A stretch of DNA of 62,553 bases from Pseudomonadota bacterium. Its GTDB lineage: Bacteria; Pseudomonadota; Alphaproteobacteria; 16-39-46. The notes under the pieces were generated by a model. The model did no database searches. It saw nothing but the letters and a program-made list of their open reading frames with translations, and was not told the origin of the DNA. A program made the translations under genes and the position numbers. Shown one piece after another: positions 9,589 through 27,373 of the stretch. The stretch covers positions 1-62,553 of the forward strand of contig JAFEBT010000003.1 in assembly GCA_018242545.1 (NCBI GenBank). The letters run 5' to 3'. Every line of letters begins with the position of its first letter. Within the stretch, counting starts at the first letter, position 1.

Positions 9589-9591
9589 AAA

Positions 9592-9717: not shown

Positions 9718-9827
9718 TATATTTCTCCCTGTTGTTTAAGCCCTTGTTATTGTTTTATTTCTTTTATATTTTGAGACTTTTGAATGAATGTTTTATCCTG
9801 CCTTACCTTTTTCATTAACCAATTTTT

Positions 9828-11093: not shown

Positions 11094-11266
11094 AAGCTTC
11101 CTCCTTGTTCATTTATTTTTTTAAGATTTTTTAGATTTTATTTTTGTTTTGGATTTATTTTTGACTTTTTAACGCGTTTTAATTCTTCTAATAAATCTTT
11201 CTCTTTGTGTTTTTGTTTTAATTTTAAGAAAGGCGTTCTATTCGCCTTTATCCAGCAATCTCCTTT

Positions 11267-12514
11267 TTAGGAGAACTCGTCATCCCCTTCTAAAGACAGA
11301 ATCAGGACTCTTCCATCTTCTTCTCCTACAGGAACCAGAGCAGGAAACGCTTCATTAGATCTTATATTGCCATAATCATCCTTCCAAGATTTTTCTACTT
11401 CTATAAATTTATTAAAGGCTGGCCAAAAATTCTCTAATGAGTCTTTTTCTTTGAAATGAAATTCTCCTATTTCTTTTAGAAATGTTGCATCTGTCATTAA
11501 AGGTATAACATCTCCTGCGCGTATATTTTCCGCATGGACAATTCCGTTATACTCCTTAATAGAAGCATCCATTTCTTTCAGCTTCTCTAGAACATCAGGA
11601 CTTAGGCCTCTTTTAAATCTAACATCAATTCTTGCATCAACAGAGCCTGTTTGCATCAGTTCTTTGGCTAACCTTTGGTCAAAAATTGTTAAATTGTTAG
11701 CTTGAGGATTCCATTGCCACACGGCTCTTCCTCGTTCACGGTCATAACAAAATCCTCCTAGATCTCCAGAAGCAAGTATAAATCTGCGCGCATATAAGAG
11801 ATCATAATCTTTACCTATCAGAGCCCATTCGGGAGAAGCTATTTGATCGGTATATTTTAAATGCGTCTGTATATCACTAGGCCGAAGCGCAACAGGACGA
11901 CTCAAAGCCGCATAAAGCCCGGAGGTGGGCTCATCCAACCAAAGAATTTGGGGATTGACACCTAAGGCCCGGTCATAGTCTGCATGCTTCGCCATACCCA
12001 TTTGATCGAAAAGAAGTTGAGAGAAACCTTCATTTATTCCTTTTCCTTGAAGATATATGTCTCCTCTCACCAAGGAAGATCGTTTATCATTTAAAAAGGC
12101 ATCTATGGAACCTCGAGGTAGGACAAAGATATGATTTTCCACCTGTTTCCCATAATTTTTAAGTGCTGCTTTCGTTTGAAAAGAAGAGGTATCATCCGCC
12201 CTAATATAAGCTATAGCCCTTCTTTTATCTTCTAAAGAAAGTTTCCGATAAACCTTTTTAAATGTTTCAATATCAGAGGATTGAACCTCATAATGATCTC
12301 TGTCTTTTCTAAGTTGCATCCAAGGTCCATTCGCCATTTTTTTTAACTTTTCAAGAGCAGTTAGCTTAAATTTATCTTCGGTATCCATCTCATATCGATA
12401 TAGTGCATCATGTTCCGTTCCAAAAAGTTCAGCATTGAATTTCCCCCCTTTTAATGAAGCGTTGAATAAACAAAGAATACCGAAAGAGATGAATATAATT
12501 TTAGTAAATCTCAT
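11267..12514 (-). CDS. Secreted array paralogue m3
   Basis: Leader MRFTKIIFISFGILCLF. Module A is YEVQSSDIETFKKVYRKLSLEDKRRAIAYIR and module B is GDLGGFCYDRERGRAVWQW..LTIFDQRLAKELM. Only 2 nt separate it from m4. Confidence 0.75.
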   Translation of the reverse strand: MRFTKIIFISFGILCLFNASLKGGKFNAELFGTEHDALYRYEMDTEDKFKLTALEKLKKMANGPWMQLRKDRDHYEVQSSDIETFKKVYRKLSLEDKRRAIAYIRADDTSSFQTKAALKNYGKQVENHIFVLPRGSIDAFLNDKRSSLVRGDIYLQGKGINEGFSQLLFDQMGMAKHADYDRALGVNPQILWLDEPTSGLYAALSRPVALRPSDIQTHLKYTDQIASPEWALIGKDYDLLYARRFILASGDLGGFCYDRERGRAVWQWNPQANNLTIFDQRLAKELMQTGSVDARIDVRFKRGLSPDVLEKLKEMDASIKEYNGIVHAENIRAGDVIPLMTDATFLKEIGEFHFKEKDSLENFWPAFNKFIEVEKSWKDDYGNIRSNEAFPALVPVGEEDGRVLILSLEGDDEFS

Positions 12515-12516
12515 TT

Positions 12517-13497
12517 TTACTCTCCTGCTCCCTCATCGTCAAGCTCATCGAAGAGTTCATCCAAATAAAGCCGACTCTTTCTTTTCGAAATAACCCTATC
12601 AGAAACCGTTATGAAATAAGGATGCATGTTATAATCTTCCCTCGACATTCTATCAATCCAATTAACCGCTCCTTGCGCAGGCATGCTTACATCCAGAACC
12701 TCTCCATTATCTTTTAAAACTTCTGCATCAAAAAGCTTTAATTTCTCTCTCACGTCTTCTGTATTTCGAACAGTAAGAGCAATGCCTGTATTAGGATGGG
12801 CCTTTGCGATGTCATCAACTATTTTATAGGAAAGCATAGGATCATATATATTGACTATTCCTTCTGGTATATGGCGTTCCCATAATTTTCTTCCCTCCCC
12901 TAAGTTGTAACCCGCTTCTTTACCTTGCCCCCATGTATAAGCATAATCTCCAGTCAAAATTGCCTTTTTATAACCTTCTTCTTTCATTCTTTTCCATGGA
13001 GCTTTTCTCCAACCACTTTCTATAAATTCTAAATCAGCCCATGCTAAGCTATAATCCCGACAGACAGTAAAACCTGCAACACCCTCCCTATCTTCAAGAA
13101 GATCTTTTAATTTTCCTTCTTTTACTTTGAAATAAACCCCGTCTAATGTATCTGCATATGGCAGCAAGCGCGCTTTTACACCAGGAGAAACTTCTTTTGC
13201 GAAACGAAATTCAACGTTAACCTTCTCTTTTTCGGCTGGAGTTAATGATTTTAGAGCTTCTAAAATTTTAGGAGCGTCCGTTCCTTCAATCTTATTTTCT
13301 TCAAGATTAATTTTGACAAATGATGTTGCTTTTGTCTTTCTTTCATCAAGGCCAAAAAACGGCATTACTTCAGTTTTAAGCAAAGCAGCTTTTCGATGCT
13401 CGGCTTCTTTTTTCATTGCATCCACTGGGAACAAGGAAAAGGTATTTCCTAAAACGATCATACTTAAAGAAATTATTGTGATTTTGTTTCGCCTCAT
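12517..13497 (-). CDS. Secreted array paralogue m4 (closest to m13)
   Basis: Leader MRRNKITIISLSMIVLG. Module A is IEGTDAPKILEALKSLTPAEKEKVNVEFRF and module B is WGQGKEAGYNLGEGRKLWERHIPEGIVNIYDPMLSYKIV. Confidence 0.8.
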   Translation of the reverse strand: MRRNKITIISLSMIVLGNTFSLFPVDAMKKEAEHRKAALLKTEVMPFFGLDERKTKATSFVKINLEENKIEGTDAPKILEALKSLTPAEKEKVNVEFRFAKEVSPGVKARLLPYADTLDGVYFKVKEGKLKDLLEDREGVAGFTVCRDYSLAWADLEFIESGWRKAPWKRMKEEGYKKAILTGDYAYTWGQGKEAGYNLGEGRKLWERHIPEGIVNIYDPMLSYKIVDDIAKAHPNTGIALTVRNTEDVREKLKLFDAEVLKDNGEVLDVSMPAQGAVNWIDRMSREDYNMHPYFITVSDRVISKRKSRLYLDELFDELDDEGAGE

Positions 13498-13622
13498 CTC
13501 TTTCCTCCTTGTTTTAAACGCATCTTTTATTTTTTCTGCATGTTTTCAGAGGCCTGTTGAGCGTAAATATTTTCTTTTGCGTTCAAAATACCTCTTGTCT
13601 CACAACAGACGTTTTGAAAATT

Positions 13623-14537
13623 TTACTTTTCTCGTTGTATTTCTTTATAGGCTTTCAGGGCCTCTTTCACTTTCAGAGAAGGAATTGCACTTGCTTCAAA
13701 AGAAATGGTAAAATCATCCTTCGCTTTTTTCTCTAACCCTCTAAGGACCTCCTCTGCTTTCATTTTTGACTTTCCGAAACCTGTAAACCCTTCTTTTTTA
13801 TCTCTTCCAATCATTTCTCGAGTATCTTTCGAACCCTCTTGTCCCCAAGAAATCTCGGCGTCAGGAGAAATCCTCTTAAGTATTTCTTTGGAAAGAGCCC
13901 TTCCATAAACAAAGATACGATTGTCTTCAGGTCTATAGGATGCAATTTTCTTTCCAGTTGAATCATAAAGATCCTCTATGTCTGCATTTCTTCCAGACCA
14001 ATAACTATCATGCACCATAATCTGGTCATATGGTTTTATGAAGGAACCCTCTCCTATAAAATTTGGTGTAAAAAGAACTTCTGGGCATCTAAATCCAACT
14101 CTCTTGATTGCTTTTTCAGAAACATCAGGATCCTGAAGTATCGCCCCAAAACCAAGCGCTGGTATGACATAATGATCTTTTTCAAAAGTTTCTCCCTGGG
14201 CTTCAAAGCGTGCTCGAAATTCAGGAGTAGTTTCTATAGGAAGATAAACCTCAACTCTTATTTTGTCTTTTTCGGAAGGAGACATCTTTCCAAGAGCTGT
14301 CATAAGACCTTTCATATCATTCCCTTCAACCCATTGAGTGTTTCTGTCATAAGCAAGATAAGGTTGCTTTATATCAAAAAAGAAACTTCCAACTCCCATA
14401 AAACCTGGTGATGCAAAAGAAGTTACGGCTCCGTTTCCATACATTTCTGTTTGACTCCCCTGCACTGCAGCAGAAGAAAGAACGCCTCCGATCACGAAAA
14501 TACCTAAAGAAAAAGCTGTGATTTTATTATATTTCAT
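13623..14537 (-). CDS. Secreted array paralogue m5 (closest to m14)
   Basis: Leader MKYNKITAFSLGIFVIGG. VEGNDMKGLMTALGKMSPSEKDKIRVEVYL is module A. The C-terminal FTISFEASAIPSLKVKEALKAYKE aligns with m14. Confidence 0.8.
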   Translation of the reverse strand: MKYNKITAFSLGIFVIGGVLSSAAVQGSQTEMYGNGAVTSFASPGFMGVGSFFFDIKQPYLAYDRNTQWVEGNDMKGLMTALGKMSPSEKDKIRVEVYLPIETTPEFRARFEAQGETFEKDHYVIPALGFGAILQDPDVSEKAIKRVGFRCPEVLFTPNFIGEGSFIKPYDQIMVHDSYWSGRNADIEDLYDSTGKKIASYRPEDNRIFVYGRALSKEILKRISPDAEISWGQEGSKDTREMIGRDKKEGFTGFGKSKMKAEEVLRGLEKKAKDDFTISFEASAIPSLKVKEALKAYKEIQREK

Positions 14538-14646
14538 GTTTTGTTCTCCTTGCTTTTTTTACCAATTTTTATTATTTAGATACATTTTGTATACCTGGAA
14601 TGTCCCTCTCATACGTATAAACACCTATATCTTCTACAAATTTGCC

Positions 14647-15504
14647 TCAATTTCCCGGTTGTAAAGCTGTATCTGGAAACTTCATGTATTCTATTCCTCC
14701 TGAAGTCATGAACCCAAAAGCAAGATCCCCTACAGGTACATTTTCCATTTTCAAAGATTCTCCATCTATCGTATAAGAAATTCTTTTTTCATCTAATGTA
14801 GACTGAAACTCTTTGAGGGCATTTACAGAAACCACCTGATCTTCTGGCAAAATATCTATCATTTTCCGCGTTAATCCTTTCCCCGTTACAGTAACTTCTC
14901 CAGTGCCCAAATCATGAATAAGTCTGTCACCAGTTGCAGCATTGAACACAGTTTCCTTTCCCCGTCCGCGTGCAAAAACAACATCTCCCTTCCTAAGAAA
15001 AAAATCAAAGTCTTCATGTCCTCTAAACCATTGCGTCGCAGGCGCTATCTGGGGAGCCAGCATATATATTCCTAATTCAGGATGGCCCTTCCACTGTTTT
15101 ATAAATGCGTCAACCTCTTTTCCTTGAAGCTGAACGGTTTCTCCCTTTTTACGTAGGCCATATTTCCTTAAAAATTTTCGATCTTCAGAAGAGGCATTGT
15201 TATCCAAGCGTATTTCTACAGTAAGGTTTTTCCTTTGTTCAGATGATAAAGAAAAAAAGAGTTTTGAAAACCCATCAGGATCCGTTCCTTCTAATCTTTT
15301 CTCTGTTTTGTCCCAGTATAAATAAGGATTTTCTTTGAGTTTCTTAAAATCAAAAAAAGGCTTTTTGAAAGGGTTGATACTTTTTTCTCTAACTTCAACA
15401 TCCTTCTGTTTATCTTCTTCTTTTCCAGCCTCAAGACTTGCAAAACAAAAAGAAACGCCCCCCATGAGCATAAACACAGCAGTCGTCATCTTAAGATATT
15501 TCAT
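14647..15504 (-). CDS. Secreted array paralogue m6
   Basis: Leader MKYLKMTTAVFMLMGG. Modules seen are LEGTDPDGFSKLFFSLSSEQRKNLTVEIRL, GRGKETVFNAATGDRLIH and EFQSTLDEKRISYTIDGESL. Confidence 0.8.
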   Translation of the reverse strand: MKYLKMTTAVFMLMGGVSFCFASLEAGKEEDKQKDVEVREKSINPFKKPFFDFKKLKENPYLYWDKTEKRLEGTDPDGFSKLFFSLSSEQRKNLTVEIRLDNNASSEDRKFLRKYGLRKKGETVQLQGKEVDAFIKQWKGHPELGIYMLAPQIAPATQWFRGHEDFDFFLRKGDVVFARGRGKETVFNAATGDRLIHDLGTGEVTVTGKGLTRKMIDILPEDQVVSVNALKEFQSTLDEKRISYTIDGESLKMENVPVGDLAFGFMTSGGIEYMKFPDTALQPGN

Positions 15505-15636
15505 TTCCTTCTCCTTGTTTTAAGTTATAATTTCATTGTTTTCTTTTTTATTTTCATGTTTTATGAAGACATCATTTTAAAAAGAACTTATCCAAAACAT
15601 TTCCTTATTTCCCAGGATGGGTTTTTATGAATTGGA

Positions 15637-16770
15637 TTATTTTGAATCCTCTCCTTTCAGCAACCTATTCAGCAGTTTTTCCTTTAAAAGACGCTTTTTT
15701 TGAAAATCCATCACCTCCTTAGAAAGTGTTATTTCTATATCATCCATCCACTCCTCAAATGGAATATCTGCAACTTTAACATCTTTAGAACTCCAATATC
15801 CTTGAGAATCAAGACCCAATGGGATACCATGGGCTTCAAATATAGAAGGAACAACGGACGCACTTGTTTTTTTAACTTTTATATCCACTCTTGCTGCAGG
15901 AGGGAGAGCGGCACTAATATCTCTTGCCAACGGTCCTCTGAAAGTAAATTTTCCTAAGAGAGAGTCATACCCATAGAGTTTGTCTCCCAGCTTTGTATAA
16001 AAAGCTTCTCCCCATCCGCCACGTGCAAAATAACCTCCACCCACATCCCAAAGTATAACAAAGTCCTGTTTCTTCAAATCTTCCGAAATTTTTGAAGGGA
16101 CAATCTTTAAAAAGTCCTCCTTTTCCATGCCAGTTATTTTAAAATCAGCCTCCTCTATCCCAGGAAGGTTGATTAAATTAGAATAATGTTTTAGAAACTG
16201 CTCAGGCGAGATTATATAATCTGTTCCATCATAAACAGCCCCCAAATTTACCAAACTTCTTCCAACTTCAAGTACAGACATATTATATGGAAGACGAATC
16301 CTAACGCTCTTTTCCCATTCTTCTTTACCTGTCACAACACTGCCTGTTCCTAGGACAATATGGTTCTTTTCTAAGCGAGGAGCAGTTGCAACACTTTCAT
16401 CCAGCAGTTGAGAGGCTCTCCTTGAATCTTTTTTTGAGTCCTTAACTTCTACTCGCGCAATCACTTCTAAATAATTTCTTATTTTAGATGCATCTCTGCT
16501 TCTGATCTCCCCTGCATTAAAATCCAATTCTACAGAGGACCTTTCCTTTATTTTCTCATCAGAGGGAAGATTGGACTTTCCATTAAACTGATCTTTAACA
16601 CTTCCCTTAAACATTATATGTTCGAAAAAATGCGCTAGTTCCTCTTTTTCTGATTCCCTCTGCAGCGCCTGTATGGGAGAAAAGGAAGTCCCTATTAAAA
16701 CGCCTGTAATTAAAGAAACTGTCGTAAGCGTATTGATTTTCATAAGATTTCTCCCCGTTTTTAAGGACAT
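15637..16770 (-). CDS. Secreted array paralogue m7 (closest to disrupted m15)
   Basis: The family leader MKINTLTTVSLITGVLIG begins at Met 10, so the likely start is 16743. LPSDEKIKERSSVELDFNAGEIRSRD and GGWGEAFYTKLGDKLYGY are shared with 27440-28281. Confidence 0.8.
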   Translation of the reverse strand: MSLKTGRNLMKINTLTTVSLITGVLIGTSFSPIQALQRESEKEELAHFFEHIMFKGSVKDQFNGKSNLPSDEKIKERSSVELDFNAGEIRSRDASKIRNYLEVIARVEVKDSKKDSRRASQLLDESVATAPRLEKNHIVLGTGSVVTGKEEWEKSVRIRLPYNMSVLEVGRSLVNLGAVYDGTDYIISPEQFLKHYSNLINLPGIEEADFKITGMEKEDFLKIVPSKISEDLKKQDFVILWDVGGGYFARGGWGEAFYTKLGDKLYGYDSLLGKFTFRGPLARDISAALPPAARVDIKVKKTSASVVPSIFEAHGIPLGLDSQGYWSSKDVKVADIPFEEWMDDIEITLSKEVMDFQKKRLLKEKLLNRLLKGEDSK

Positions 16771-16826
16771 TAGTTTTTTGTTTTTTTATTCAAGATTTAA
16801 AAAGAATTCGTTTGATCCTTTCAATC

Positions 16827-17771
16827 TTACATAGCTATATTTGCATTTGCATTTAAAAAATTTGCAATTTGTTTATCTATCTGCTCACTGATCATAACGT
16901 CAATAGAACTCCCATCCGTAAATCTTAGAGCATTGAGTGATTGAAGACCCTCTGCTGCAGGCACATCTTTTACATAAAAACCTGCTCCATTTTCTTCTTT
17001 GTAAACAAAGCCCAACCTCTTATTGCGCTCATTAAAAAGCAGATCATCCAATGCTTCAAATTTTATTTTAACACGTGCATTTGGATCCAGGTTCGCAAGA
17101 ACTTCTTTTGAAAGTATGGGATCCTTAATCCTCACAACACGCTCTTTATGAGAATATTCTATGATGGGTTTTCCAGTTTTCTTATCAAACAGAGACTCAG
17201 TATCTCCTGTAACGAAACCAAAATATCCAGCCCCTTCATAATATTGATCAAAATTTCCATCTTTTAATTTCTTTCCTCCCGCTACATATCCCCAAAAAAT
17301 GTCTTTTGGACAGTTAAATCTTAGAAAAGTTCTTGTTGGCAATTTGTAGAGGGTGTCAGACCATAAAGAGTTAAACTTCTCAGCCGGTACTGTATAAGCG
17401 CCCAATTCAGAAATATCTTTAAATGCTTCTAATTTTCCTTTGACTTCTGGAGCAGGAGAATATCCTTCTGGAATTTCAAACCGAATCTTTGTCTTCTTTT
17501 TTTCTTCCTCAGGGAGTAAAGCGATTACACTCCTCAAGGTCTTTAAATCTGTCCCTGATATCTCACCTTTTGACTTATCATACCTAAAATACTCTTTTTT
17601 CTTAAACTCTAACCATTCGGGGAGTACTTTTCCCGTGGCCTCTATATCGGAAGCCTGCATTGTTTGATTTCTAAAGTCTCTTCTTTCCATATCTACCTTT
17701 GCAGCATTAGAAGAGTCTCCCGCTAAAATTGCTATTCCGAAAGAGAAAATTGTAAATGTTTTCAGTTTCAT
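16827..17771 (-). CDS. Secreted array paralogue m8
   Basis: Leader MKLKTFTIFSFGIAILAG. Modules seen are ISGTDLKTLRSVIALLPEEEKKKTKIRFEI and GDTESLFDKKTGKPIIEYSHKERVVRIKDPILSKEVLANL. Confidence 0.8.
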   Translation of the reverse strand: MKLKTFTIFSFGIAILAGDSSNAAKVDMERRDFRNQTMQASDIEATGKVLPEWLEFKKKEYFRYDKSKGEISGTDLKTLRSVIALLPEEEKKKTKIRFEIPEGYSPAPEVKGKLEAFKDISELGAYTVPAEKFNSLWSDTLYKLPTRTFLRFNCPKDIFWGYVAGGKKLKDGNFDQYYEGAGYFGFVTGDTESLFDKKTGKPIIEYSHKERVVRIKDPILSKEVLANLDPNARVKIKFEALDDLLFNERNKRLGFVYKEENGAGFYVKDVPAAEGLQSLNALRFTDGSSIDVMISEQIDKQIANFLNANANIAM

Positions 17772-17887
17772 TTTATTTTTCCTTTTTTAAAGTTTATCTT
17801 AAACACCTTATTTAGACATTATTTTTTTGTCTTTTAATCTTAAAAAGCCTTTCTTCTTTTCCGAAAAACAATCTTCAAAACCTTTCT

Positions 17888-19756
17888 TTATACTTTAGAT
17901 TCCGAATGCTTTTCGACCTTCTCTTTATCAAAAGAGGATTTAGGAACAGGACGGTCTCCTTCAGACTTGAAAGACACATGTCTTTCTGGTTTTGGATGTT
18001 CCAAGATTTTAATTTCGGCCATTTCTTCAAGCTTATGACGCCGGTCTTCACGGGCTTGCTCAATAGCTTTCTTAAAAATTTCAGCACGAACTTTCGGTAT
18101 TTTAATATCCGCTTTAAGAGCTGTTATTCCGTTTTGTGTGCCAGCTATTGTGAAATTCATGTCGCAAGCACGCTTCTCATCCTCTGCCATATCTGAAAGA
18201 ACAACAAATTTTTCGCCTTTTTTCAAAACACCAACAGTTGTTCCAGTAACAAGATTTTTAAGAGGGACACCTGCATCTCTTAAAGCAACAGAAATGCCTG
18301 TAAGTGCAACGGAATCTGCAGCGCCATCGATTCCCATTATTTCAGAATCAACTTGGACCTGATAAAGAAATTCTTCTTTCAAAGGAAGGACAGGACGAAA
18401 AGCCTTTTCCATAAAAAGGTTAGAGATTCCATCAATGGTGTACAAGCCCGGCCGTCGTCTTTGTTCTATATTTGTCAGAGAATCAAAGGGTATCTTCACA
18501 AGCCATCTCTCATCGACTATAGGTTTACCTGCTTCTCTTTTTTCAAACTTTACCTTTGCTAAAGCTTGGTTTTCCCCTGAGCTCACGAATGCACTTCCAT
18601 CAGCATCCCCTGAAAAAAGCCCAGCCTCTCCTCTTAATTCTCGACTTTCTTTTAATTTACGTTTGTCTTGGCGCTTTCCGTGGGAAATTTCTTCTCGAAC
18701 AATTGCAGCATAAACTGCAAAAAACGCCTTATTGAGCCAAAACTCAGGAACGCCTTTGAAAGCAGGATCTTGTTCTAAATTCTCAAAAGCACCCTCAAGA
18801 AGAACCTTACGGTTTCTCCAATCCTGCTCTTGAGGCACAGCTTTAAGTTCCTCCAAAACTTGAGAGGATACTTTCTTTTTTATGTCTTCAAATGCTTGAA
18901 CTTCAGTCCCATACTTTTTTGTCGCAGGATTCATTCCCGCCTTGTTTGCAAGACGATCCATGGCTGCAATCAAATTCTTAAACTCTTTCTGTCCTTGGGC
19001 AAGGGCCTCTAAAACGGATGTTTCAGGAAGTTCATTTGCACGGCCCTCGATTGTTACCAAATCACGCACTGTTCCCGTCAAGAGCATGTCGAGATAAGCT
19101 TTCTTTCTTTCTTCTATCTTTGGATTAATGACATAGTTCCCATCTACCAATGCAACGCGCGCTGCACCAAAGGGCTCTCTTATTGGAACGCCGGAAAGTT
19201 TTAAAGCTGCAGAAGCCGCTAAAAATGCTGCAACGTCACGATTTTCATGGCCTTCCAAAACGTCACATGTCACAGTCATGGGACGCGCCCATCCTTCAGA
19301 TAAAAGAAGAGAAATGGTGCGTTTTAGTTGATCTGCTACATTTTCTTCAACCTCCTCAAACACTTGAGGTTTACCAGGTATTTCTTCTTGCTTTTGAAAA
19401 GCTTCAAATCCTGGTGTGCGATAAGACACCATCAGGGGATCAAAATCGGGCGCTGCTATTTGGGGTTTACCAATATCAACAGTCGCCAAAACAGTTGTAC
19501 CTCCTAATCTTACAACAGCTGATCCATCGGCTTGTCTTGCAAACCCTCCCGTTTCAATACTGAAAGGTAATCCTCCAAAGGTGGTTTCTTCCCGATAAAC
19601 ACGCGAATCGTTAAGAAACATTTCCAAGCCTTTTTTGTCTTTTTTTTCTTCATTTAAAGAATCTTGATCAGACGCAAAAGAAAAATTGAGCCCTAAAAGA
19701 AATATGCTTAAAGTGGTCATTGTTAAGGTCTTGAATCTCATAGAACTTCTCCTCAT
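17888..19756 (-). CDS. Signal-peptide-bearing PNPase-like protein: two RNase PH-like domains, no KH or S1, degenerate catalytic motifs
   Basis: LPFSIETGGFARQADGSAVVRLGGTTVLATV and GVPIREPFGAARVALVDGNYVINP match the PNPase first core. DAGVPLKNLVTGTTVGVLKKGEKFVVLSDMAEDEKRACDMNFTIAGTQNGITALKADIK matches the second core. The N-terminus MRFKTLTMTTLSIFLLGLNFSFA-SDQ is the array leader. Confidence 0.85.
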   Translation of the reverse strand: MRRSSMRFKTLTMTTLSIFLLGLNFSFASDQDSLNEEKKDKKGLEMFLNDSRVYREETTFGGLPFSIETGGFARQADGSAVVRLGGTTVLATVDIGKPQIAAPDFDPLMVSYRTPGFEAFQKQEEIPGKPQVFEEVEENVADQLKRTISLLLSEGWARPMTVTCDVLEGHENRDVAAFLAASAALKLSGVPIREPFGAARVALVDGNYVINPKIEERKKAYLDMLLTGTVRDLVTIEGRANELPETSVLEALAQGQKEFKNLIAAMDRLANKAGMNPATKKYGTEVQAFEDIKKKVSSQVLEELKAVPQEQDWRNRKVLLEGAFENLEQDPAFKGVPEFWLNKAFFAVYAAIVREEISHGKRQDKRKLKESRELRGEAGLFSGDADGSAFVSSGENQALAKVKFEKREAGKPIVDERWLVKIPFDSLTNIEQRRRPGLYTIDGISNLFMEKAFRPVLPLKEEFLYQVQVDSEIMGIDGAADSVALTGISVALRDAGVPLKNLVTGTTVGVLKKGEKFVVLSDMAEDEKRACDMNFTIAGTQNGITALKADIKIPKVRAEIFKKAIEQAREDRRHKLEEMAEIKILEHPKPERHVSFKSEGDRPVPKSSFDKEKVEKHSESKV

Positions 19757-19852
19757 TCATCTTATGTTAAATATAACTCACATTTTGATCCCAACTCTCA
19801 TCACCCATTTCTCAGAGAATCATTCTTCATTAAGATAAAATTTCGGTTTCTT

Positions 19853-21010
19853 TTACCATCTGGCACGATATCCTTCTGAAGTTCTGAAAATACTTTTTTC
19901 TTGTTTTTCATCCATAGGCGGCCTTAAAGTTTCTTTTCCTTGAAGAGCGATTTCGGGCATTTCAATAAGCTCTATTTTTGACCTAAATTCTGAAGACGTT
20001 AAGAAGCGAACGGCTTTCGCCCTCTCCAATTTTGCCAAGATATATCCATCAGGTTGAATGCTATAAGAAATCTGTTGTTTGTCTAGTTTTTGTCTTACGT
20101 TCGCCTCATCTTTCATCTTTAAAACAACAGGAAAATTTAGGGATTGAACCTTAAGATCATCCTTAAATTTCCCTCTCCAATCTCCTTCAGAAATAATTAT
20201 CTTGCCTTTTTTAAGGTCAACCATGGCATTTCTATTGGTATCATATATCCCTTCTTCAGAACGGCCAAAGGCATAAGCCTTTCCATCGGCTTCAAGAAGA
20301 TATCTCCAATTGTTGTAAGACCTATCTTTAATAGGATCTTCTCCTTCTCTCCCCCGTCCGAGATGCCATTGATCTACGACCTGGGAAGGTAAGTGTCCTT
20401 CAACTTGAACAGTATAATCTGTCCTCTCTTTCCCATCCTTATTATTTTCCCAAACAAGCCCATCAACATCATTAGGGGAGATTAAAAGCCATCCTCCTGT
20501 CACATTATTTCTTATCCAGACTTCATGACCTCTATTCAGCTCTGACCTCCTCTCATCCCAAGATCTCTTATAAACTTTAACTTTAAGAGCTTTTCTTTCT
20601 TCTGGAGAAAACCCTTTGAGAAAAGCCTTCAATTTTTCTTTTCTATTGGTTGAAAAGAGAATTTGTCCCGGTAAAATAACAAACTCCTGCCACACATGAG
20701 CATTGTTTTTGATCCCATCAAAATCCACAAAATTATAGTTATTCCTGGCATACCCTTGCAGAAAACTCTCTCCCTGATAATAATTTAAGGGGACGGAGAA
20801 AGCGGGATGGGAAGGATAAGGAACTGAAACTTCATTATCTTCTCCATAAGAATCAAATGTAACGAAGGACGAAACATTGGTTCTTTCATCTAAAACAGTT
20901 GCATCTTGCGCCTGCGAAATATCAGGGAGCTCCATTCCATGAACGGTCAAAAGAGGATACGACAAAAAAAGAACTTTAAAAGAAAGAGGGATAATTTTTC
21001 TGAATTTCAT
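19853..21010 (-). CDS. Secreted array paralogue m9
   Basis: Leader MKFRKIIPLSFKVLFLS. Modules seen are LKAFLKGFSPEERKALKVKVY, FGRSEEGIYDTNRNAMVDLKKGKIII and NVRQKLDKQQISYSIQPDGYIL. Confidence 0.8.
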   Translation of the reverse strand: MKFRKIIPLSFKVLFLSYPLLTVHGMELPDISQAQDATVLDERTNVSSFVTFDSYGEDNEVSVPYPSHPAFSVPLNYYQGESFLQGYARNNYNFVDFDGIKNNAHVWQEFVILPGQILFSTNRKEKLKAFLKGFSPEERKALKVKVYKRSWDERRSELNRGHEVWIRNNVTGGWLLISPNDVDGLVWENNKDGKERTDYTVQVEGHLPSQVVDQWHLGRGREGEDPIKDRSYNNWRYLLEADGKAYAFGRSEEGIYDTNRNAMVDLKKGKIIISEGDWRGKFKDDLKVQSLNFPVVLKMKDEANVRQKLDKQQISYSIQPDGYILAKLERAKAVRFLTSSEFRSKIELIEMPEIALQGKETLRPPMDEKQEKSIFRTSEGYRARW

Positions 21011-21080
21011 AATAGACTTTCTCCTGTGTTTTGAATAAGGTTTCGTTTTGCTTTATAAGTGAAAGAAACTTTTTCTTTTA

Positions 21081-22079
21081 TTAAGCTTCAAAAGAATTGT
21101 ATCCAGGTGATCCAAAACCGGTTTCAATGAATAAATTCCTCAATCTTTCAGCATCTTGACTGTTCTGAAAAGCGATATTTGAACGCATTATATTGTCTTT
21201 GAAGAAGTCACTATATCCTGGCTCAAACCATTTTTCATAATCATAATTATACCATTTTGTTCTAAGAAGACCATTCCCATCTATATCGTAAACAACATTC
21301 CAGTCATTTAGTTTTTGTTTGACTTCGCCAATATTTTTGAAGGTTACTTCAAAAGGATCTTTTAAATTGTGATAACTCCAATAAGCGACCCATTTTAAAG
21401 TTTCGTAATCATATATTTTTATAAATTTCTCTGCAGGAACATATTCCCAAAGTTTTTGTCCTGTTTTTGCGTCATAAGCGGTCTCTTTATTTTTTTCAGT
21501 TGCGAGAACTTTGTCAGGAGTTTTTAGGATAGAGGTAACACCATCAGGAACGAAATCTGTATGAGCGAATATTTTTATCTTCTTTTCAGGGTCAGCATCA
21601 TAAGACCATCTAAAAGTTACGTTTCTTTCCTCTAATTTGCGTTGCGCCTCTTTATCCTTTAAAAGTTCATGGATCTTTTCTTTATCAACATAGAAGGTCT
21701 TTCCTTCCACTCTGCCATATTTTTCAACAAAATTGTTCTTTCCCACGTCTTGCCACACTAACCTAAGGTCATCATCTTTTGCACCTGTTTGATCTCTCCA
21801 CAACTCATAATTCCTACAAAGCTCTATCCAATTATTACCTGTAACGAATATTCTCCTGTTCTTTTTTTCTGCCTTTATCCATCGAACGTCTCTCTTTTTA
21901 GTAATTTGACCTTCATACATAGCTCCCACGTCATCTTCTTTTGAAAACTCTATATTCGCTGGAGCTTTTCTTCTTAGAGTATCTTTGATTTCTGGCGCTG
22001 CCTTAAGTGTCTCTGCTGCCAAAGAAATTGTAAGAAAAAGAGAGCCTAGGGTTGTTACTGTATGTTTATTAAGTTTCAT
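21081..22079 (-). CDS. Secreted array paralogue m10
   Basis: Leader MKLNKHTVTTLGSLFLT. Modules seen are EKNKETAYDAKTGQKLWEYVPAEKFIKIYDYETL and EVKQKLNDWNVVYDIDGNGLL. Confidence 0.75.
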   Translation of the reverse strand: MKLNKHTVTTLGSLFLTISLAAETLKAAPEIKDTLRRKAPANIEFSKEDDVGAMYEGQITKKRDVRWIKAEKKNRRIFVTGNNWIELCRNYELWRDQTGAKDDDLRLVWQDVGKNNFVEKYGRVEGKTFYVDKEKIHELLKDKEAQRKLEERNVTFRWSYDADPEKKIKIFAHTDFVPDGVTSILKTPDKVLATEKNKETAYDAKTGQKLWEYVPAEKFIKIYDYETLKWVAYWSYHNLKDPFEVTFKNIGEVKQKLNDWNVVYDIDGNGLLRTKWYNYDYEKWFEPGYSDFFKDNIMRSNIAFQNSQDAERLRNLFIETGFGSPGYNSFEA

Positions 22080-22223
22080 TTTTTGTTCTCCTTATTTGTA
22101 CGTGATTGTTTAACTCTTTATGCTTTGCTCTAACTTTCATTCTTCAAAAGTGAGCTGAATGAAGCAAGAACTTCATATCTTTGAACTTTTACTTTTCATA
22201 TTTCACCAAGATATCCTCATTTC

Positions 22224-22340
22224 TTATAACAATGAGTTCCCCCTCCTCAATTTCAGCTTCAGCTTCGCCAAACCCCTCAAAGGGAAAGCCGCGAGAACGA
22301 TAATACTTAAATAAATTCTGGTAATTTTATTGAATTTCAT
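22224..22340 (-). CDS. 38-aa signal-peptide sORF heading unit A; possibly a decayed copy of the 28402-28602 ORF
   Basis: My translation is MKFNKITRIYLSIIVLAAFPLRGLAKLKLKLRRGNSLL. After AAFP, another frame reads FEGFGEAEAEIEEGEL..., which parallels AALPFSFV...AEDEIG in the 66-aa ORF. Confidence 0.35.
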   Translation of the reverse strand: MKFNKITRIYLSIIVLAAFPLRGLAKLKLKLRRGNSLL

Positions 22341-22452
22341 ATGTTTTCTCCGTGTTTATTGTTTTTTATTTTATTATTTTTGGTCTTTATTGTTTTTGTT
22401 TTTCTAATTTAGAATATACTAATTTTTAGAGATTGGCACGCTTAAAAAAACA
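22341..22452 (-). promoter_or_regulatory. Conserved upstream leader, copy A (repeat of 28603-28715); candidate promoter plus A-rich 5' UTR of unit A
   Basis: Aligns by eye over its whole length with the region upstream of 28602. Shared blocks include ttggtctttat, tttttctaatt, atatactaatttttaga and cttaaaaaaaca. The minus strand carries TTAAGC-N18-TAGTAT(ATT). Confidence 0.45.
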
Positions 22453-22500
22453 GTAAAGGGATCAAAATCCGGAAAATAAGGTTATGTTTCAAGTGACTAT

Positions 22501-22520
22501 CCACGGGTTAATACCCGTGG
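22501..22520. other. Perfect 8-bp hairpin between the end of unit B and the leader of unit A
   Basis: In ccacgggttaatacccgtgg the stem CCACGGGT pairs with ACCCGTGG around a 4-nt loop. No U-tract follows on either strand, so it is not a canonical intrinsic terminator. Confidence 0.4.
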
Positions 22521-22573
22521 TATCTGCGCCACCTTTTAGATAAAAGTTTTTAAAGGATCTTTCTATCTAATCT

Positions 22574-23165
22574 TTAGTCAACTTCCATAGGAGCTTCAAA
22601 TGCAACCGTAAGAGGCGTGTATTGAAGCGTTAAAAAATGGTGAGGATTTTCAGGAGTATCCTCTTCTATTTTAGCTATTCTTCCTTTAAACACCCTTCCA
22701 TCGCTTGCACCCAAATCAAATCTTCTTTTTGCTTCTTCTGCTATTCTTCTATAATCTGCTGCTGGGTCTTGGTTAGCACCCATTCTAATTACATCTTGCA
22801 CAAAAACGTCCTCTTTAAAGATCCAAAATGTATGAGGCTTTTCTGGGGAAACTTTGGAAAGAAAGTGTTGAAAGAAATTCAAATGCAAAGGTCCACTAAA
22901 GAAAAGCTCTAAAATTTCTTTTTCAATACCTTCCTGAACGGGGGTTAAGGTAAGAGAAAATCTGCTTTCTATTGGAAATTTCCTCTCAGGATCCCAATGT
23001 GCGTGTCTTTTTTTCACATAGGCACGTTTTAAAGAGCGACCTATTTCCTGACTTTCATAAGTTAATTCTAATAATCCATCGTGTATTTTCACACAAAGAA
23101 CATTATGGAAAAAAAGACAACACAGGCAAAAAAAGGCAAATGAAAAAATACGATTAAACTTTCAT
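22574..23165 (-). pseudogene. Terminal-gene paralogue T2 (172-aa ORF 22574-23092) with an out-of-frame signal-peptide start
   Basis: The ORF frame stays open upstream of GTG 23092 as KFNRIFSFAFFCLCCLFFHNVLC, a signal peptide with no in-frame ATG. The ATG at 23163-23165 reads MKV then stop. Loss of one A from its AAA would give MKFNRIFSF... in frame. Confidence 0.6.
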
Positions 23166-23238
23166 AAGCTCCTTAACTAAAATGATCTCTTTAACCTATA
23201 GTATTCCCCCCCCTCTTTTCTTCAAGATTCTAAAAAAT

Positions 23239-24329
23239 CTACCTCAGGAAAAAGCGACCACTTAGGGCAATACCCACAGAAACACCCTCAAAAACAGCTG
23301 AAGCTATACTATCTGAAACTATAGCAGCATCCTTTCCATTCCTATGTAAGATGTGAAAGGCTTGCTCAGGACGTAAGTTAGGCAATACGAGGTGCCCTGT
23401 TTCTCCAAGAGAATAAGAAAGCTCATATCTTTTCATCATACCTCTGACTTCTGGATAGTCGAAAAACTCTAGGTTGATCCTTGCCTCCTTATTCGTGTCT
23501 TTCAATAACCTTATGTGTCTTTGAATTTCTTGAAAGTCATTGGTGCGATAGATTTTTTTAACGGGGTCAAAATATCTATACTTTCCTGTAGAATCATCCC
23601 TTAAATATACCCATCCCTCATGATTGTTAACCTCCATCAAAGGGCCTTTTCTATAAATTTTTAGAGAAAAAGGGTGCCCTTGAGGAACAGCATAAAAGAA
23701 AGAGTTTAAAAGATCCTTTTTCTTATCTCGTCCCTCCCCTACCCCTATAGAATCCGGATAACGTTTATCAATTCCTATCAAATGATCAAGCCAGAAATTA
23801 TTTTCCGGCCCCCAAAAAGCTGTGGGTATAAGTTTAAAAGTGACCCTTTCAGAAAGATTTTTATTTTCTGAAATAAATTTCAAAACCGCAGGGAGGTTCT
23901 TAGGGTCTATAGCAACTTCCCTTTTATCAGGAGAAACTCTCCCTCCGTGTCTTTCGAGCCATATCATTTCCACTTCTTTCAGGGTAAACATAAAACGAAA
24001 TGTTCCTTTGGACTCAGGTATAAAGATCTCTTTTCCATCATATACTGTTTTGAAATCGTCTCCTGTTATTTCTTTTGCACCAGGATTCCATGCAAGAAAT
24101 TTTCCAGTTTTAAGATCTTCTACTCTTATATTTCCGCTTGAGTCTTTAAAAAAATGCTTCGCACTATCAAAAGACAGAGGTTTTTTTCTTTAGCGAGGTC
24201 TTCAAACTTTCTGGCTTCTTTTTGCCTCACCGTATTTTTTTCTTTATCAAGTCCAGCTTCTATAGATGTTGCTGAAAAAGTTTTTAAAATAAGAAGTCCA
24301 AGAGAAAGTGTTGTTGTATTGAGTTTCAT
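23239..24329 (-). pseudogene. Array paralogue m11, split by a frameshift in an A7 tract
   Basis: ORF 24126-24329 encodes the leader MKLNTTTLSLGLLILK...AKEK. The frame of ORF 23239-23991 is open upstream to 24189 (KKPLSFDSAKHFFKDSSGNIRVEDLKTGKF...). One extra base in the run at 24181-24187 fuses the two. Confidence 0.75.
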
Positions 24330-24350
24330 AAGATATCTCCCATGTTTTCG

Positions 24351-25388
24351 TTAAGGATTTTTTTCTTCGCTTATCGCGTTAGCTTCTAAAAAGGTGTTAG
24401 AAGATATGCCCGCGTTCCCTTCAAGCACGGGTTGCTCATTCAATTTACGCTGATTTATGTATTCCTGGAATACCTCCAGCAGGTGCTCTTTTGTCATACT
24501 TTCTTGTTGAAAATAAACTTCTGGAGACGCCCCTGCCTGTCGAATATCCAACACCATCCGCATAAGGTCTCGCCGAAGGCCACTTACTTCCATAATATCC
24601 TTATGATGCGTAACAGATGCGCCTTCTTCTATCAGCTTTCTCTCAAGCTCGAGATCTCTTTTTTGTATTCTAAATCCAACAGGTGCCTGAGGCTTTATTT
24701 TTTGAAAAGCTCTTAGAGCGAAATCCTGATCATGAAAGATCACCCACTTTGATCCACTATCAATCTGCCAAAGTTCTTTTCCTCTTCTTACATCATAGCC
24801 CGCTTCTTTTAAGGGACCAGTAATAAGAGCATATTCATCTGTCAAAAAAACATGATTAAATGCTTTGTCTCCCAAGAAAAACTTATCTGAGAAATCAGAA
24901 CCAACCGGTGTTGGTGCCCAAATAGAAAATTCTCTTCCTTCTTTTAACCATCCATTTTTTATAAGGACATCAAAGGAAGGATAAGGCAATTTCCACAAGC
25001 CCTTTTGATCTTTCATTCCATGTTTTTTAATAAATTTTTTTCCGTCACCAAACCCATGCGCGTCCAATTTAATTTTAAATTTAGCCTTTTTTTTAATCTC
25101 TTCAGGAACTGACCTATAAAATCTTTCAAATTCAAAGGGATCTGAACTTCTAATATGAACCCCATTTTCTGTTCGGAAGCCTTCTGTCCATTTTTTTGAC
25201 TTGTTTTTTAGGTTGTTAAAAAATTCCTGAGGGGTTTTTGACTCTGCCTTTGGGACCTTCTCCTCGATGGGACCATAAATTATTTCTCTCTTTTCTCCCT
25301 CAGGATAGTGTTCTGATGCCTTTAAAAAAGGACTGAATACCGTACAAACTCCAAAAGAAAGAAGGATGATGTTAGATGTTTTCATCAT
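24351..25388 (-). CDS. Secreted array paralogue m12 (closest to m1)
   Basis: Leader MMKTSNIILLSFGVCTVFS. Modules seen are FFNNLKNKSKKWTEGFRTENGVHIRSSDPFEFERFY and GPLKEAGYDVRRGKELWQID. It overlaps the end of m13 by 17 nt. Confidence 0.8.
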   Translation of the reverse strand: MMKTSNIILLSFGVCTVFSPFLKASEHYPEGEKREIIYGPIEEKVPKAESKTPQEFFNNLKNKSKKWTEGFRTENGVHIRSSDPFEFERFYRSVPEEIKKKAKFKIKLDAHGFGDGKKFIKKHGMKDQKGLWKLPYPSFDVLIKNGWLKEGREFSIWAPTPVGSDFSDKFFLGDKAFNHVFLTDEYALITGPLKEAGYDVRRGKELWQIDSGSKWVIFHDQDFALRAFQKIKPQAPVGFRIQKRDLELERKLIEEGASVTHHKDIMEVSGLRRDLMRMVLDIRQAGASPEVYFQQESMTKEHLLEVFQEYINQRKLNEQPVLEGNAGISSNTFLEANAISEEKNP

Positions 25389-26352
25389 AAACCTCCCTGC
25401 CGTTCTTGACGTTTTTTACAAATCCTTCTTGAAATAAGGCAGCAGGAAATTCAACCCTCCCTTTAAATTCTTCGCCCCCGTATGCAAACCATCCATATGC
25501 TTCCTCTAAAGAGAACTCTTTATAAAAGGTTCCATCATTTCCTCTTCTAAACGCTTCAATGCGGTTCTCTGTTAATTTTATTTCTGCTTTAGGCTCACCT
25601 TCAGCAATTAAACGAACAGGGACATTCGGAAAGCGATCTTTAAATTTCTCAATCATCTCAAGTGCAAGCGTTCGATTATAGATGCGAACCTTTCCGTCTT
25701 TAACAGAATGCTCCCAGATTTTTTTTCCAGATTTTCTATCATAAAAAGCCTCTTTTCCCGCATCCCAAGCTAAAACACTCATATCATTCACAATATAATA
25801 TCCATATTTCTGTGCTTCTAAATCGCGCCTTATTTCGAAGTCTTTAGAAGTTTCTAGACCTGGAAGCTGACCCTGACCCATAGCTTCGCGCGGATAGGTG
25901 TGCCCACGCAAAAACCAAAAGAAGATCTGACGAATGTTACTTATTTTGTGTGTCTTTAAAAAATCCTCAAAATCGTCGGGTTTTAGGGCAAAATTATATC
26001 CATCCCTCGTTTGTGCAAAGGGTTTATAAATTCTTTGAAGTTCAGGAGAAGCTTTTTGGTTAAGTGTAAATCCAAGGCGAACATTCTTTTTTTCTTCAGG
26101 AGACATTCGTTTTAAAGCTTTTTCAATTTCAGCGACATTTGTTCCTTTAAGTTCTTTTCTTTTCTGATCAACCTCAATATAAGAGCCTTTTCTAAGCTCA
26201 TTTAAAGCAATGAAATGTTCTTTCTCTTTTTTTTGAGCTTGATCACTTCTTTCCATTTCGGCTTCTGTTGCTTTTGTACCTTGCACAAAAGAAAGAGATC
26301 CACTTAAGATAAAGACACTTAAGGACAGTGTTGTTATATAATTTATTTTCAT
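25372..26352 (-). CDS. Secreted array paralogue m13 (closest to m4)
   Basis: Leader MKINYITTLSLSVFILSG. Modules seen are LKGTNVAEIEKALKRMSPEEKKNVRLGFTL and AWDAGKEAFYDRKSGKKIWEHSVKDGKVRIYNRTLALEMI. Confidence 0.8.
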   Translation of the reverse strand: MKINYITTLSLSVFILSGSLSFVQGTKATEAEMERSDQAQKKEKEHFIALNELRKGSYIEVDQKRKELKGTNVAEIEKALKRMSPEEKKNVRLGFTLNQKASPELQRIYKPFAQTRDGYNFALKPDDFEDFLKTHKISNIRQIFFWFLRGHTYPREAMGQGQLPGLETSKDFEIRRDLEAQKYGYYIVNDMSVLAWDAGKEAFYDRKSGKKIWEHSVKDGKVRIYNRTLALEMIEKFKDRFPNVPVRLIAEGEPKAEIKLTENRIEAFRRGNDGTFYKEFSLEEAYGWFAYGGEEFKGRVEFPAALFQEGFVKNVKNGREVYDENI

Positions 26353-26464
26353 TAGATTCTTCCTTTTTTTAAGTTTCTTTTTAATTTTATGATGCTCTTA
26401 TGCTCATTGCGGTAAAGAAATGTTCCTTTTAAAAACTATCTTTACAAAAGGCATAATAAGCGTT

Positions 26465-27373
26465 TTAAAGACGTTTTTTTGCTTTATAAGCAGTCAAAGC
26501 TTCTTTCATTTTTGAAGCAGAAATTTCACTCCTTTGAAAAGAAATATCAAAAGAAAGCTCTGGTTTTTCTTCCATCATTTTAAGCAAATCCCTTGCTTTT
26601 ATTGGAGTTTCTTTGAAATTTTTATCTTCCTCATTTTTATGAGGCATCATTTTCTGTTCTTCTGATCGAACAGACTTTTTCCAAGCTACAAACGTCTCAG
26701 GATTAGCTCTTTTAAGAAATTCCCTAGCAAAATCAGCTCCATAAATGGAAATATGATCGTTGGTTGGATTATACGAAGCAACCTGTTTTCCATCTTGAGT
26801 ATAAAGAAATTCTCCCGCGTGATTCATCCCATATAATAAGCCGCCCTGCCATATAATCCGATCAAATGCGTCGCTATCAACTTTTATTATACCCAAAATT
26901 TTGGTGAAAATAGGTTCTGAACATACAAATCGAATTCTCATGGGTTTTCTATCTCTGTTCTCACCATCTAACTTTTGATACTTTTTTACAAAATCATCTC
27001 CTGTCATGACAGAAAAGTCATTGATAGATGGTCTTCTGATGACCCCTTGGCTTAATTCAGGAGAAAGTACTTGATCATAATATACATTAATTTTTAGATT
27101 TTCCTTTTCTGAAGGAAGTAACTTATCAAAGCCTTTTACAAAAGTTTGTATATCATTCCCTTCAACGCGCTGGTTCTTTCTATCAAAGATCATATAAGGT
27201 TGGGCTGGATTCACAAACGCCTCACCCAATACCAACGGCTCCAAAGACACAAGAATGGTAAAATCCGCTCGGTCCTCCCTGCCTGCATGAAAATCTTTAA
27301 GAGGAGCCGAAGAAAGAGGTGCTCCAAAGGCAAGAAAACTTAAAGTAAAAGCTCTGATTTTAGTGTACTTCAT
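26465..27373 (-). CDS. Secreted array paralogue m14 (closest to m5)
   Basis: Leader MKYTKIRAFTLSFLAFG. Modules seen are VEGNDIQTFVKGFDKLLPSEKENLKINVYY and FDISFQRSEISASKMKEALTAYK. Confidence 0.8.
   Translation of the reverse strand: MKYTKIRAFTLSFLAFGAPLSSAPLKDFHAGREDRADFTILVSLEPLVLGEAFVNPAQPYMIFDRKNQRVEGNDIQTFVKGFDKLLPSEKENLKINVYYDQVLSPELSQGVIRRPSINDFSVMTGDDFVKKYQKLDGENRDRKPMRIRFVCSEPIFTKILGIIKVDSDAFDRIIWQGGLLYGMNHAGEFLYTQDGKQVASYNPTNDHISIYGADFAREFLKRANPETFVAWKKSVRSEEQKMMPHKNEEDKNFKETPIKARDLLKMMEEKPELSFDISFQRSEISASKMKEALTAYKAKKRL

Follow-up and report, generated by a model that had tools for sequence, protein, structure and literature searches.

We analysed a 62,553-nucleotide (nt) contig, referred to here as the window, which is one contig from the chromosome of an uncultured alphaproteobacterium of low GC content (about 36-40%). 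On its minus strand, within a tandem array of genes for leader-bearing proteins, lies a relative of the gene for polynucleotide phosphorylase (PNPase, encoded by pnp), which we refer to as PNPL. On balance, we think it probable that PNPL is an exported, non-catalytic paralogue or scaffold that consists of the PNPase core and carries a leader from the surrounding array. An initial annotation of this DNA had described an exported, apparently catalytically dead PNPase homologue without KH and S1 domains, and had interpreted it as a duplicated ring scaffold recruited to an exported gene set. Our analysis confirmed the observation and supported the interpretation; of the contrary observations that the annotation itself had named, none was made where we looked for them.

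The longest open reading frame (ORF) listed at PNPL occupies positions 17888..19756 of the minus strand, with a product of 622 amino acids, and all of the peptide strings quoted in the initial annotation were found in its translation. The position of the Shine-Dalgarno sequence indicates a shorter product than the 622 amino acids assumed there. A GGAG lies 7 nt 5' of the ATG at 19741-19739, which is Met6 of the long ORF, and the first ATG of the long ORF overlaps this Shine-Dalgarno sequence (...ATGAATGAGGAGAAGTTCT ATG AGA TTC AAG...), so the PNPL product is 617 amino acids long. These features of the sequence place the start of translation at the leader Met. A second in-frame Met, Met41 of the 617-amino-acid form, lies in an MFLND context that matches the MF.. 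N-terminus of canonical PNPases, and corresponds to a nearly invariant alignment column (M46 in the numbering of the 622-amino-acid ORF). Met41 is preceded only by a weak GGA/AAGG context, with no good Shine-Dalgarno sequence. The features of the gene are as follows:

17888..19741, minus strand: PNPL coding sequence, 617 amino acids plus stop, from Met6 of the 622-amino-acid ORF

19749..19752, minus strand: Shine-Dalgarno sequence GGAG (inside GAGGAGA), from direct reading of the sequence, with the same spacing as in the array genes

19619..19621, minus strand: ancestral pnp start codon, kept and now internal, from the alignment and the DNA

Sequence profiles, solved structures and fold comparison all identified PNPL as a PNPase core, in agreement with the initial annotation. 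Searches against Pfam detected two RNase_PH domains (E 2.8e-35) and two RNase_PH_C domains. The NCBIfam PNPase equivalogs NF008805 and TIGR03591 aligned to residues 57-582, with scores below the curated cut-offs (306.8 bits vs 471, and 304 bits vs 525.05), and solved PNPases aligned to residues 52-591 with E about 1e-65. An AlphaFold2 model of PNPL, built on an alignment of 73 canonical PNPases, had a mean predicted local distance difference test score (pLDDT) of 79 and a predicted template modelling score (pTM) of 0.80, with 338 residues at pLDDT of at least 90 and disorder limited to residues 1-38, 123-128, 409-415, 422-443 and 590-622. The predicted monomer had the PNPase core fold (RNase PH domain 1, a helical domain and RNase PH domain 2). 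Comparison of this model with the PNPase cores of E. coli, Caulobacter and Coxiella gave target-normalised template modelling scores of 0.82-0.86, and the top 50 matches in a Foldseek search with the model were all PNPases.

The reported absence of the KH and S1 domains also held. We observed no Pfam match in PNPL to KH_1, S1 or PF03726 at E<=1, and tblastn searches with the KH-S1 parts of three PNPases detected no remnant of these domains anywhere in the window. The last core helix ends near residue 580 and is followed by a disordered tail that is rich in K, E, S and P, with pLDDT below 50 for residues 590-622. Judged from the model and the composition, this tail extends about 40 residues past the last core helix, rather than the roughly 60 residues described initially. 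The domain architecture is therefore as follows:

18986..19597, minus strand: RNase PH domain 1 (PH-1), from Pfam, the model and the alignment

18683..18985, minus strand: all-helical linker domain, kept in structure, with helices at residues 245-358 in the model, although PF03726 is undetected

18011..18682, minus strand: RNase PH domain 2 (PH-2), the former catalytic domain, from Pfam, the model and the alignment

17888..18010, minus strand: Lys/Glu/Ser-rich disordered tail, 40 residues plus stop, in place of KH/S1, from pLDDT and composition

We compared the active site of PNPL with that of E. coli MG1655 Pnp, which provides the reference numbering, in alignments that contained 119 canonical PNPases and controls. 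In the E. coli enzyme, Mn2+ is bound by D486, D492 and K494, the substitution D492G by itself removes both phosphorolysis and polymerisation, and RNA is bound by the FFRR loop (PMC2723993). The phosphate-binding motif is S437-439, a metal-binding region has also been defined, and the RNA-binding regions are R93/R97/R100 and R398/R399/H403 (PMC5416783). The E. coli residues, their counterparts in PNPL, and the corresponding positions in the window, all from the alignment, are as follows:

Metal ligands D486, D492, K494: K528, N534, T536 in PNPL

Phosphate-binding S437-S438-S439: A479-A480-D481 in PNPL

RNA-binding region I, R93, R97, R100: D142, R146 (kept), S149 in PNPL

RNA-binding region II, H403: S445 in PNPL

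Channel loop F77-F78-R79-R80: F-Q-K-Q in PNPL, with insertions

18314..18322, minus strand: former phosphate-binding motif, now A-A-D

18149..18175, minus strand: former metal-binding region, now KRACDMNFT (D490 kept)

19388-19399, minus strand: degenerate channel loop F-Q-K-Q replacing FFRR, within PH-1

The replacement of the phosphate motif, as proposed initially, was evident in the alignment, with A-A-D in place of S437-S439. The account of the metal site as CDMNFTIAG was correct for D492N and K494T but incomplete, since D486 is also lost, to K528. The pairing of GSFFRREGRP with PGKPQVFEEV proved to be out of register; S76-F-F-R-R-E aligns with A-F-Q-K-Q-E, with 2- and 3-residue insertions. 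The proposed loss of RNA-binding residues stood only in part. FFRR, R93, R100 and H403 are gone, whereas R97 is kept. For R398/R399 the alignments differ: BLAST pairs these residues with RR 433-434, whereas MAFFT does not show them as kept, and model confidence in this loop is low. All 12 functional controls, including plant organellar, candidate phyla radiation (CPR), Wolbachia and Pelagibacter enzymes, keep the D, D and K metal residues, and these controls keep the full catalytic set, with an S(S/T)S phosphate motif. Because the phosphate serines and all three metal ligands, which are conserved in the functional controls, have been replaced, and most of the RNA-contact Arg and His residues are gone, the alignments indicate with high confidence that PNPL has lost PNPase chemistry, in agreement with the loss of catalysis claimed initially.

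We also scored PNPL at 172 near-invariant core columns, defined as those at least 97% conserved among the 119 canonical PNPases. PNPL retains 83-84 of these columns, as compared with 131-168 for the twelve functional controls; functional PNPases from eight lineages thus range from 76% to 98%. The proportions of near-invariant columns kept were as follows:

PNPL, 48%; E. coli, 94%

Firmicute, 91%; Planctomycete, 90%; Actinobacterium, 93%; Zixibacterium, 94%

Pelagibacter (two sequences), 96-98%; Wolbachia, 84%; CPR bacterium, 76%

Two plant/algal organellar enzymes, 77-78%

The loss was heavier in PH-2, where 45 of 109 columns are kept (41%), than in PH-1, where 36 of 59 are kept (61%). All four invariant histidines and 10 of the 16 invariant arginines are lost. 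The structural motifs DAGVPLK and G.TAL..DIK persist, and the losses cluster at catalytic positions. We considered the possibility that exported PNPL retains an enzymatic or specific ligand-binding activity whose chemistry has changed; a rebuilt site might, for instance, bind or hydrolyse extracytoplasmic nucleic acid or nucleotides. The loss of the three metal ligands, the whole phosphate motif, H403, R93, R100, the FFRR loop and KH/S1 makes this quite improbable, even though R97, D490 and possibly RR 433-434 are kept, the architecture of the PH-2 pocket is predicted by the model to persist, and citrate and other small ligands bind to canonical PNPase at its active and vestigial sites (PMC5416783). 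Moreover, as PNPL has no orthologues, a newly conserved motif cannot be recognised in it.

The N-terminal extension of PNPL has the properties of a Sec-type leader and ends in a short linker:

19673..19741, minus strand: Sec-like leader MRFKTLTMTTLSIFLLGLNFSFA of the array type, predicted to be cleaved after S-F-A, from hidden Markov models (HMMs) and hydropathy

19622..19672, minus strand: acidic/basic linker SDQDSLNEEKKDKKGLE, leading from the leader to the ancestral N-terminus, from the translation and low pLDDT

The 617-amino-acid product begins with MRFKTLTMTTLSIFLLGLNFSFA, followed by SDQD, and the 17-residue linker then leads to Met41. The leader consists of MRFK, TLTMTTLSIFLLGLNF and SFA, with the predicted cleavage between SFA and SDQD. 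It has a basic n-region (two basic residues), an h-region of about 16 residues with an 11-residue hydropathy maximum of about 2.0, and small residues at -3/-1; the early mature region is acidic, without early positive charge. We observed no lipobox Cys in the leader, and no match to a Tat-signal profile of Pfam or NCBIfam. Export by the Tat pathway was considered and rejected, since the only RR pair lies in the untranslated-looking extension of the long ORF, an SRRxFLK motif is absent, and the usual beginning of an array leader is MKxxK. An uncleaved leader would instead act as a signal anchor that tethers the core to the outer face of the inner membrane. The hydrophobic stretch of about 18 residues and the positive-inside rule, which puts the core outside the cytoplasm, fit such an arrangement; however, the h-region is broken by T, S, N and G and is followed by a canonical S-F-A/S-D cleavage motif, as in the array leaders, and we regard an anchor as very improbable.

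We next compared the leader of PNPL with those of the array. In an HMM of the array family, built from ten array proteins, positions 1-39 matched residues 6-44 of PNPL (622-amino-acid numbering) with an independent E of 2.8e-5, and past the leader there was no significant match to the body of the array family (second domain, independent E 0.85). We also built an HMM of the leader alone from 14 array sequences, with PNPL left out. PNPL scored 20.0 bits in it, whereas the highest score among 6,886 background N-termini, which were taken from 250-odd other bacterial loci and included real signal peptides, was 9.4 bits. Since its score far exceeds the background, the leader of PNPL is the array's own rather than a generic hydrophobic N-terminus, as the initial annotation had proposed. 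Every array gene has an AGGAG-type site with the spacing seen in PNPL, and the leader that comes after it follows the pattern M-K/R-x-x-K-I/T-...-S-L/F-G/S. The proposed recruitment of PNPL to the array is likewise supported by the array-specific leader, the strong Shine-Dalgarno sequence, and a location away from rpsO (see below). We detected no nucleotide-level similarity between the 5' region of PNPL and the other array genes, and on this ground we rejected a recent capture of the leader; either the fusion is old, or only likeness at the peptide level is left. Because Met41 aligns with the canonical N-terminus, the leader cassette appears to have been joined 5' of an otherwise complete pnp start.

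If translation began at the ancestral Met (19621-19619), the leader would not be made and PNPL would be a cytoplasmic dead paralogue. That this Met is kept and aligned with the canonical PNPase N-terminus would be consistent with such a product, and leaderless dead PNPase cores without KH/S1 do exist, in Castellaniella/Alcaligenes and as a JGI singleton (see below). We nevertheless consider a cytoplasmic PNPL improbable. Met6 is preceded by GGAG at 7 nt, as compared with the weak GGA/AAGG context at the internal Met; the frame is open through the 40 codons before that Met; and the leader model places PNPL 10 bits above all 6,886 background N-termini, a score that would be very unlikely for untranslated sequence.

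The reading frame of PNPL contains 0 stops in 617 codons. The other sense frames contain 42 and 54 stops, and composition-matched shuffles of PNPL contained a mean of 42 stops, with a minimum of 23 in 1,000 shuffles. The GC content at third codon positions (0.30) and the codon usage of PNPL fall within the spread of the housekeeping and array genes of the window. The intact frame, native codon usage and kept structural motifs argue against a recent pseudogene or a recent transfer. We also weighed the possibility that PNPL is a decaying remnant, that is, a duplicated copy of pnp that came to lie in a fast-evolving array, has lost its C-terminus and is drifting towards a functionless pseudogene. 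Such decay could account for a singleton without an orthologue, the loss of half of the invariant columns, the truncated C-terminus, and the low model confidence in the former active-site loops, and there are other broken genes nearby (28777..30484). It would not readily account for 0 stops, where about 42 are expected, despite divergence to ~35% identity, nor for the strong Shine-Dalgarno sequence, the native codon usage, or the retention of structural motifs with losses clustered at catalytic positions; we therefore consider a decaying remnant unlikely. Purifying selection (dN/dS) is unmeasurable for PNPL, because no orthologue was found.

A search of 5.8 billion protein clusters and an exhaustive search of 1.84 billion representatives identified no orthologue of PNPL. 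We found no match to PNPL in JGI metagenome contigs, an exact-sequence look-up of contigs returned nothing, and a scan of GTDB genomes with the alignment returned only canonical PNPases. The best-matching other proteins are canonical alphaproteobacterial PNPases with 34-37% identity to PNPL, the closest being P0005, from another unclassified metagenome-assembled genome (MAG); this best-hit taxonomy suggests that PNPL originated within the Alphaproteobacteria. The exhaustive search also turned up two other PNPase cores that lack KH/S1 and have dead sites, neither of which has a leader. The first, from Castellaniella sp. S9 (WP_269496368.1) and Alcaligenes, is 560 amino acids long and belongs to a cluster of 8. 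Its phosphate motif is AAA and its metal ligands are L, T and N. Its gene, at 8001..9683 of locus L162 (NZ_JAPFGD010000003.1), is annotated as PNPase and lies among cytoplasmic-type genes (a Cpn60 paralogue, an RF3-like GTPase, a major facilitator superfamily transporter and oxidoreductases), and by its sequence and setting the protein appears to be an uncharacterised cytoplasmic pseudo-PNPase. The second, P0268, is a singleton from a JGI metagenome; it has 591 amino acids and a His/Ser/Lys-rich tail, with S437-439, D486 and D492 replaced and K494 kept.

The Castellaniella core and P0268 both resemble canonical PNPases more than they resemble PNPL or one another. Among the three dead cores, the same new residue is found at only 4-6 of 39-48 co-changed invariant positions (about 10%). 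A neighbour-joining tree placed PNPL on a long branch with both other dead copies in 128 of 200 bootstraps. We rejected common descent of the three cores and read this grouping as long-branch attraction, because the pairwise identities and the scarcity of shared derived residues oppose it; most likely, the three proteins degenerated independently. Positions at which every one of the dead cores has changed concentrate in active-site blocks, which would indicate repeated, independent loss of catalysis.

Canonical pnp genes adjoin rpsO on the same strand in 153 of the 160 loci that we fetched. By contrast, rpsO is absent from the window and the neighbours of PNPL are array genes, so the location of PNPL is not the housekeeping rpsO-pnp locus. 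PNPL is flanked by the array members at 16827..17771 and 19853..21010, with spacers of 116 nt and about 111 nt. Promoter- and terminator-like sites around PNPL were not enriched over shuffles. The array and its outlying member are positioned as follows:

8566..27373, minus strand: tandem array of orphan genes with leaders, surrounding PNPL, from all-against-all BLAST and the family HMM

30834..31577, minus strand: leaderless array-family member

The array lies between maf and pgm and contains about 15 leader-bearing genes. Thirteen array genes form a paralogous family with 13-31% identity, lengths of about 250-415 amino acids and a shared GE..YD...G..LW motif. Family members start at 8566, 11267, 12517, 13623, 14647, 15637 and 16827, and further members at 19853, 21081, 24351, 25372 and 26465, all on the minus strand; the array leader alone is also present on the genes at 9828 and 27772 (minus). 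The family has no match in Pfam or PADLOC, and searches with a single member and with a 13-member profile found no homologue outside the contig in 5.8 billion proteins. An AlphaFold model of one array member was confident (pTM 0.73) and matched no fold in the PDB (best E 0.36). The array genes are possibly a new exported protein family.

Several other features of the array were observed. The gene at 9828..11093 (minus) has an array leader (HMM independent E 2e-5) on a body outside the array family, and leader shuffling therefore seems to be recurrent in the locus; this body has a weak PD40 repeat match, and its C-terminus resembles the leaderless ORF at 23239..23991. Two leaderless paralogues of about 175 amino acids with 45% identity and no Pfam match lie at the edge of the array (7447..7983, minus) and within it (22574..23092, minus). 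The 169-amino-acid product of 27772..28281 (minus) resembles a shortened copy of the 377-amino-acid product of 15637..16770, with 37-40% identity in two segments, suggesting that array genes are still being duplicated and are decaying. Where the array ends, separate ORFs within 28777..30484 (minus) match PDDEXK_9 and AAA-ATPase_like, domains that normally occur within one protein, and probably represent a broken gene. The array genes 24351..25388 and 25372..26352 (minus) overlap by 17 nt, with the downstream start inside the upstream end, suggesting translational coupling in the array. Elsewhere, the contig carries glyQS, tsaC, maf, pgm, ugd, galU and an msbA-like gene, as well as tRNA-Met, the signal recognition particle RNA, dnaX, recR, argS, tatC and serS. 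GlyS is 72-73% identical to its counterparts in two unclassified alphaproteobacterial MAGs, and its more distant relatives include one from a 1.46-megabase chromosome. As a low-GC alphaproteobacterium with relatives of reduced genome, the organism may be host-associated.

Taken together, these data favour an exported, non-catalytic scaffold over a cytoplasmic isoform, a remnant, a protein with changed activity or a membrane anchor, each of which has some support, but less. Several points weigh against an exported scaffold. Sec export of PNPL is a prediction from the sequence. PNPL is a singleton without an orthologue, so no conservation backs a function. The in-frame ancestral Met has been kept, and a leaderless cytoplasmic isoform may therefore be made. 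Confidence in the predicted structure partly reflects the canonical PNPases in the alignment that drove the model. The window contains no second copy of pnp, and the searched DNA is this contig alone, in which a housekeeping pnp was not seen. Lastly, R97, D490 and possibly R398/R399 survive, so residual binding of nucleic acid or anions is possible.

For the exported, non-catalytic PNPL that we favour, we envisage the following course of events. KH and S1 would have been deleted from a copy of pnp, with a 40-residue disordered tail in their place, and the phosphorolytic site in PH-2 would have been dismantled. An array-type ribosome-binding site, a Sec-type leader and a short linker would have been joined upstream of the original start codon. 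The Sec pathway would then export PNPL, with signal peptidase presumably cutting after SFA, and the mature protein of about 594 amino acids would fold outside the cytoplasm into the predicted PNPase-like core. By homology, mature PNPL would probably be a trimeric ring. It may serve, without catalysis, in binding or as a scaffold, and be produced alongside the exported proteins of the array. We infer that a separate housekeeping pnp is present elsewhere in the genome; loss of RNA binding by PNPL may be complete.

PNPL resembles bacterial Pnp (E. coli P05055, 3GCM/3GME; Caulobacter 4AM3) in having the same core, with 30-37% identity over about 530 residues, but differs from it in the absence of KH/S1 and of the catalytic and most RNA-contact residues, in the presence of a leader, and in having no rpsO neighbour. 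The Castellaniella/Alcaligenes core and P0268 are core-only proteins with dead sites, like PNPL, but have no signal peptide. Organelle-targeted eukaryotic PNPases (human PNPT1; plant/algal P0178, P0201 and P0216) cross a membrane by means of an N-terminal targeting extension, as PNPL is predicted to do with its leader; they are, however, full-length and catalytically intact, with KH/S1, and their extension is a transit peptide rather than a Sec leader. The eukaryotic PH core is inactive (PMC5416783). PNPL may by analogy resemble the eukaryotic exosome Exo-9, an RNase PH-fold ring without phosphorolysis that serves as a scaffold. Exo-9 differs from PNPL in that its ring is assembled from six separate subunits with one PH domain each, lies inside the cell and still feeds RNA to hydrolytic partners, and exosome matches to PNPL were far weaker than PNPase matches, with no specific sequence kinship. 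We found no description of an exported or a dead bacterial PNPase in the literature that we searched. Thus, the PNPase fold and family and the dead RNase PH rings of eukaryotes are known, whereas a dead bacterial core combined with a secretion leader is new to the literature and databases searched.

Few enzymes of RNA decay are as highly conserved as PNPase, which is regarded as a housekeeping enzyme of the cytoplasm or of organelles. PNPL would surprise specialists in RNA decay and in pseudoenzymes, but it is a single metagenomic occurrence, read from its sequence. A more far-reaching proposal, which we regard as doubtful, is that PNPL is the first bacterial RNase PH-fold pseudoenzyme outside the cytoplasm, a trimeric, PNPase-shaped ring that a host-associated alphaproteobacterium secretes along with an orphan effector-like array and that acts as a decoy or scaffold at the host or the envelope. 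If this were true, the ring might engage partners of the host PNPase or exosome, or sequester nucleic acids or nucleotides, and PNPL would be one case of a wider bacterial reuse of dead PNPase cores, of which three independent cases were seen. The two other dead cores are annotated as ordinary PNPase, which suggests that a class of pseudoenzymes has been overlooked and that this annotation error recurs. Leader shuffling would be a route by which a fast-evolving locus for secreted proteins could recruit unrelated folds. If PNPL is an exported dead PNPase core, it would demonstrate that an RNase PH ring can take on a purely structural or binding role beyond the cell, much as eukaryotes have reused the PH ring inside the cell, in the exosome.

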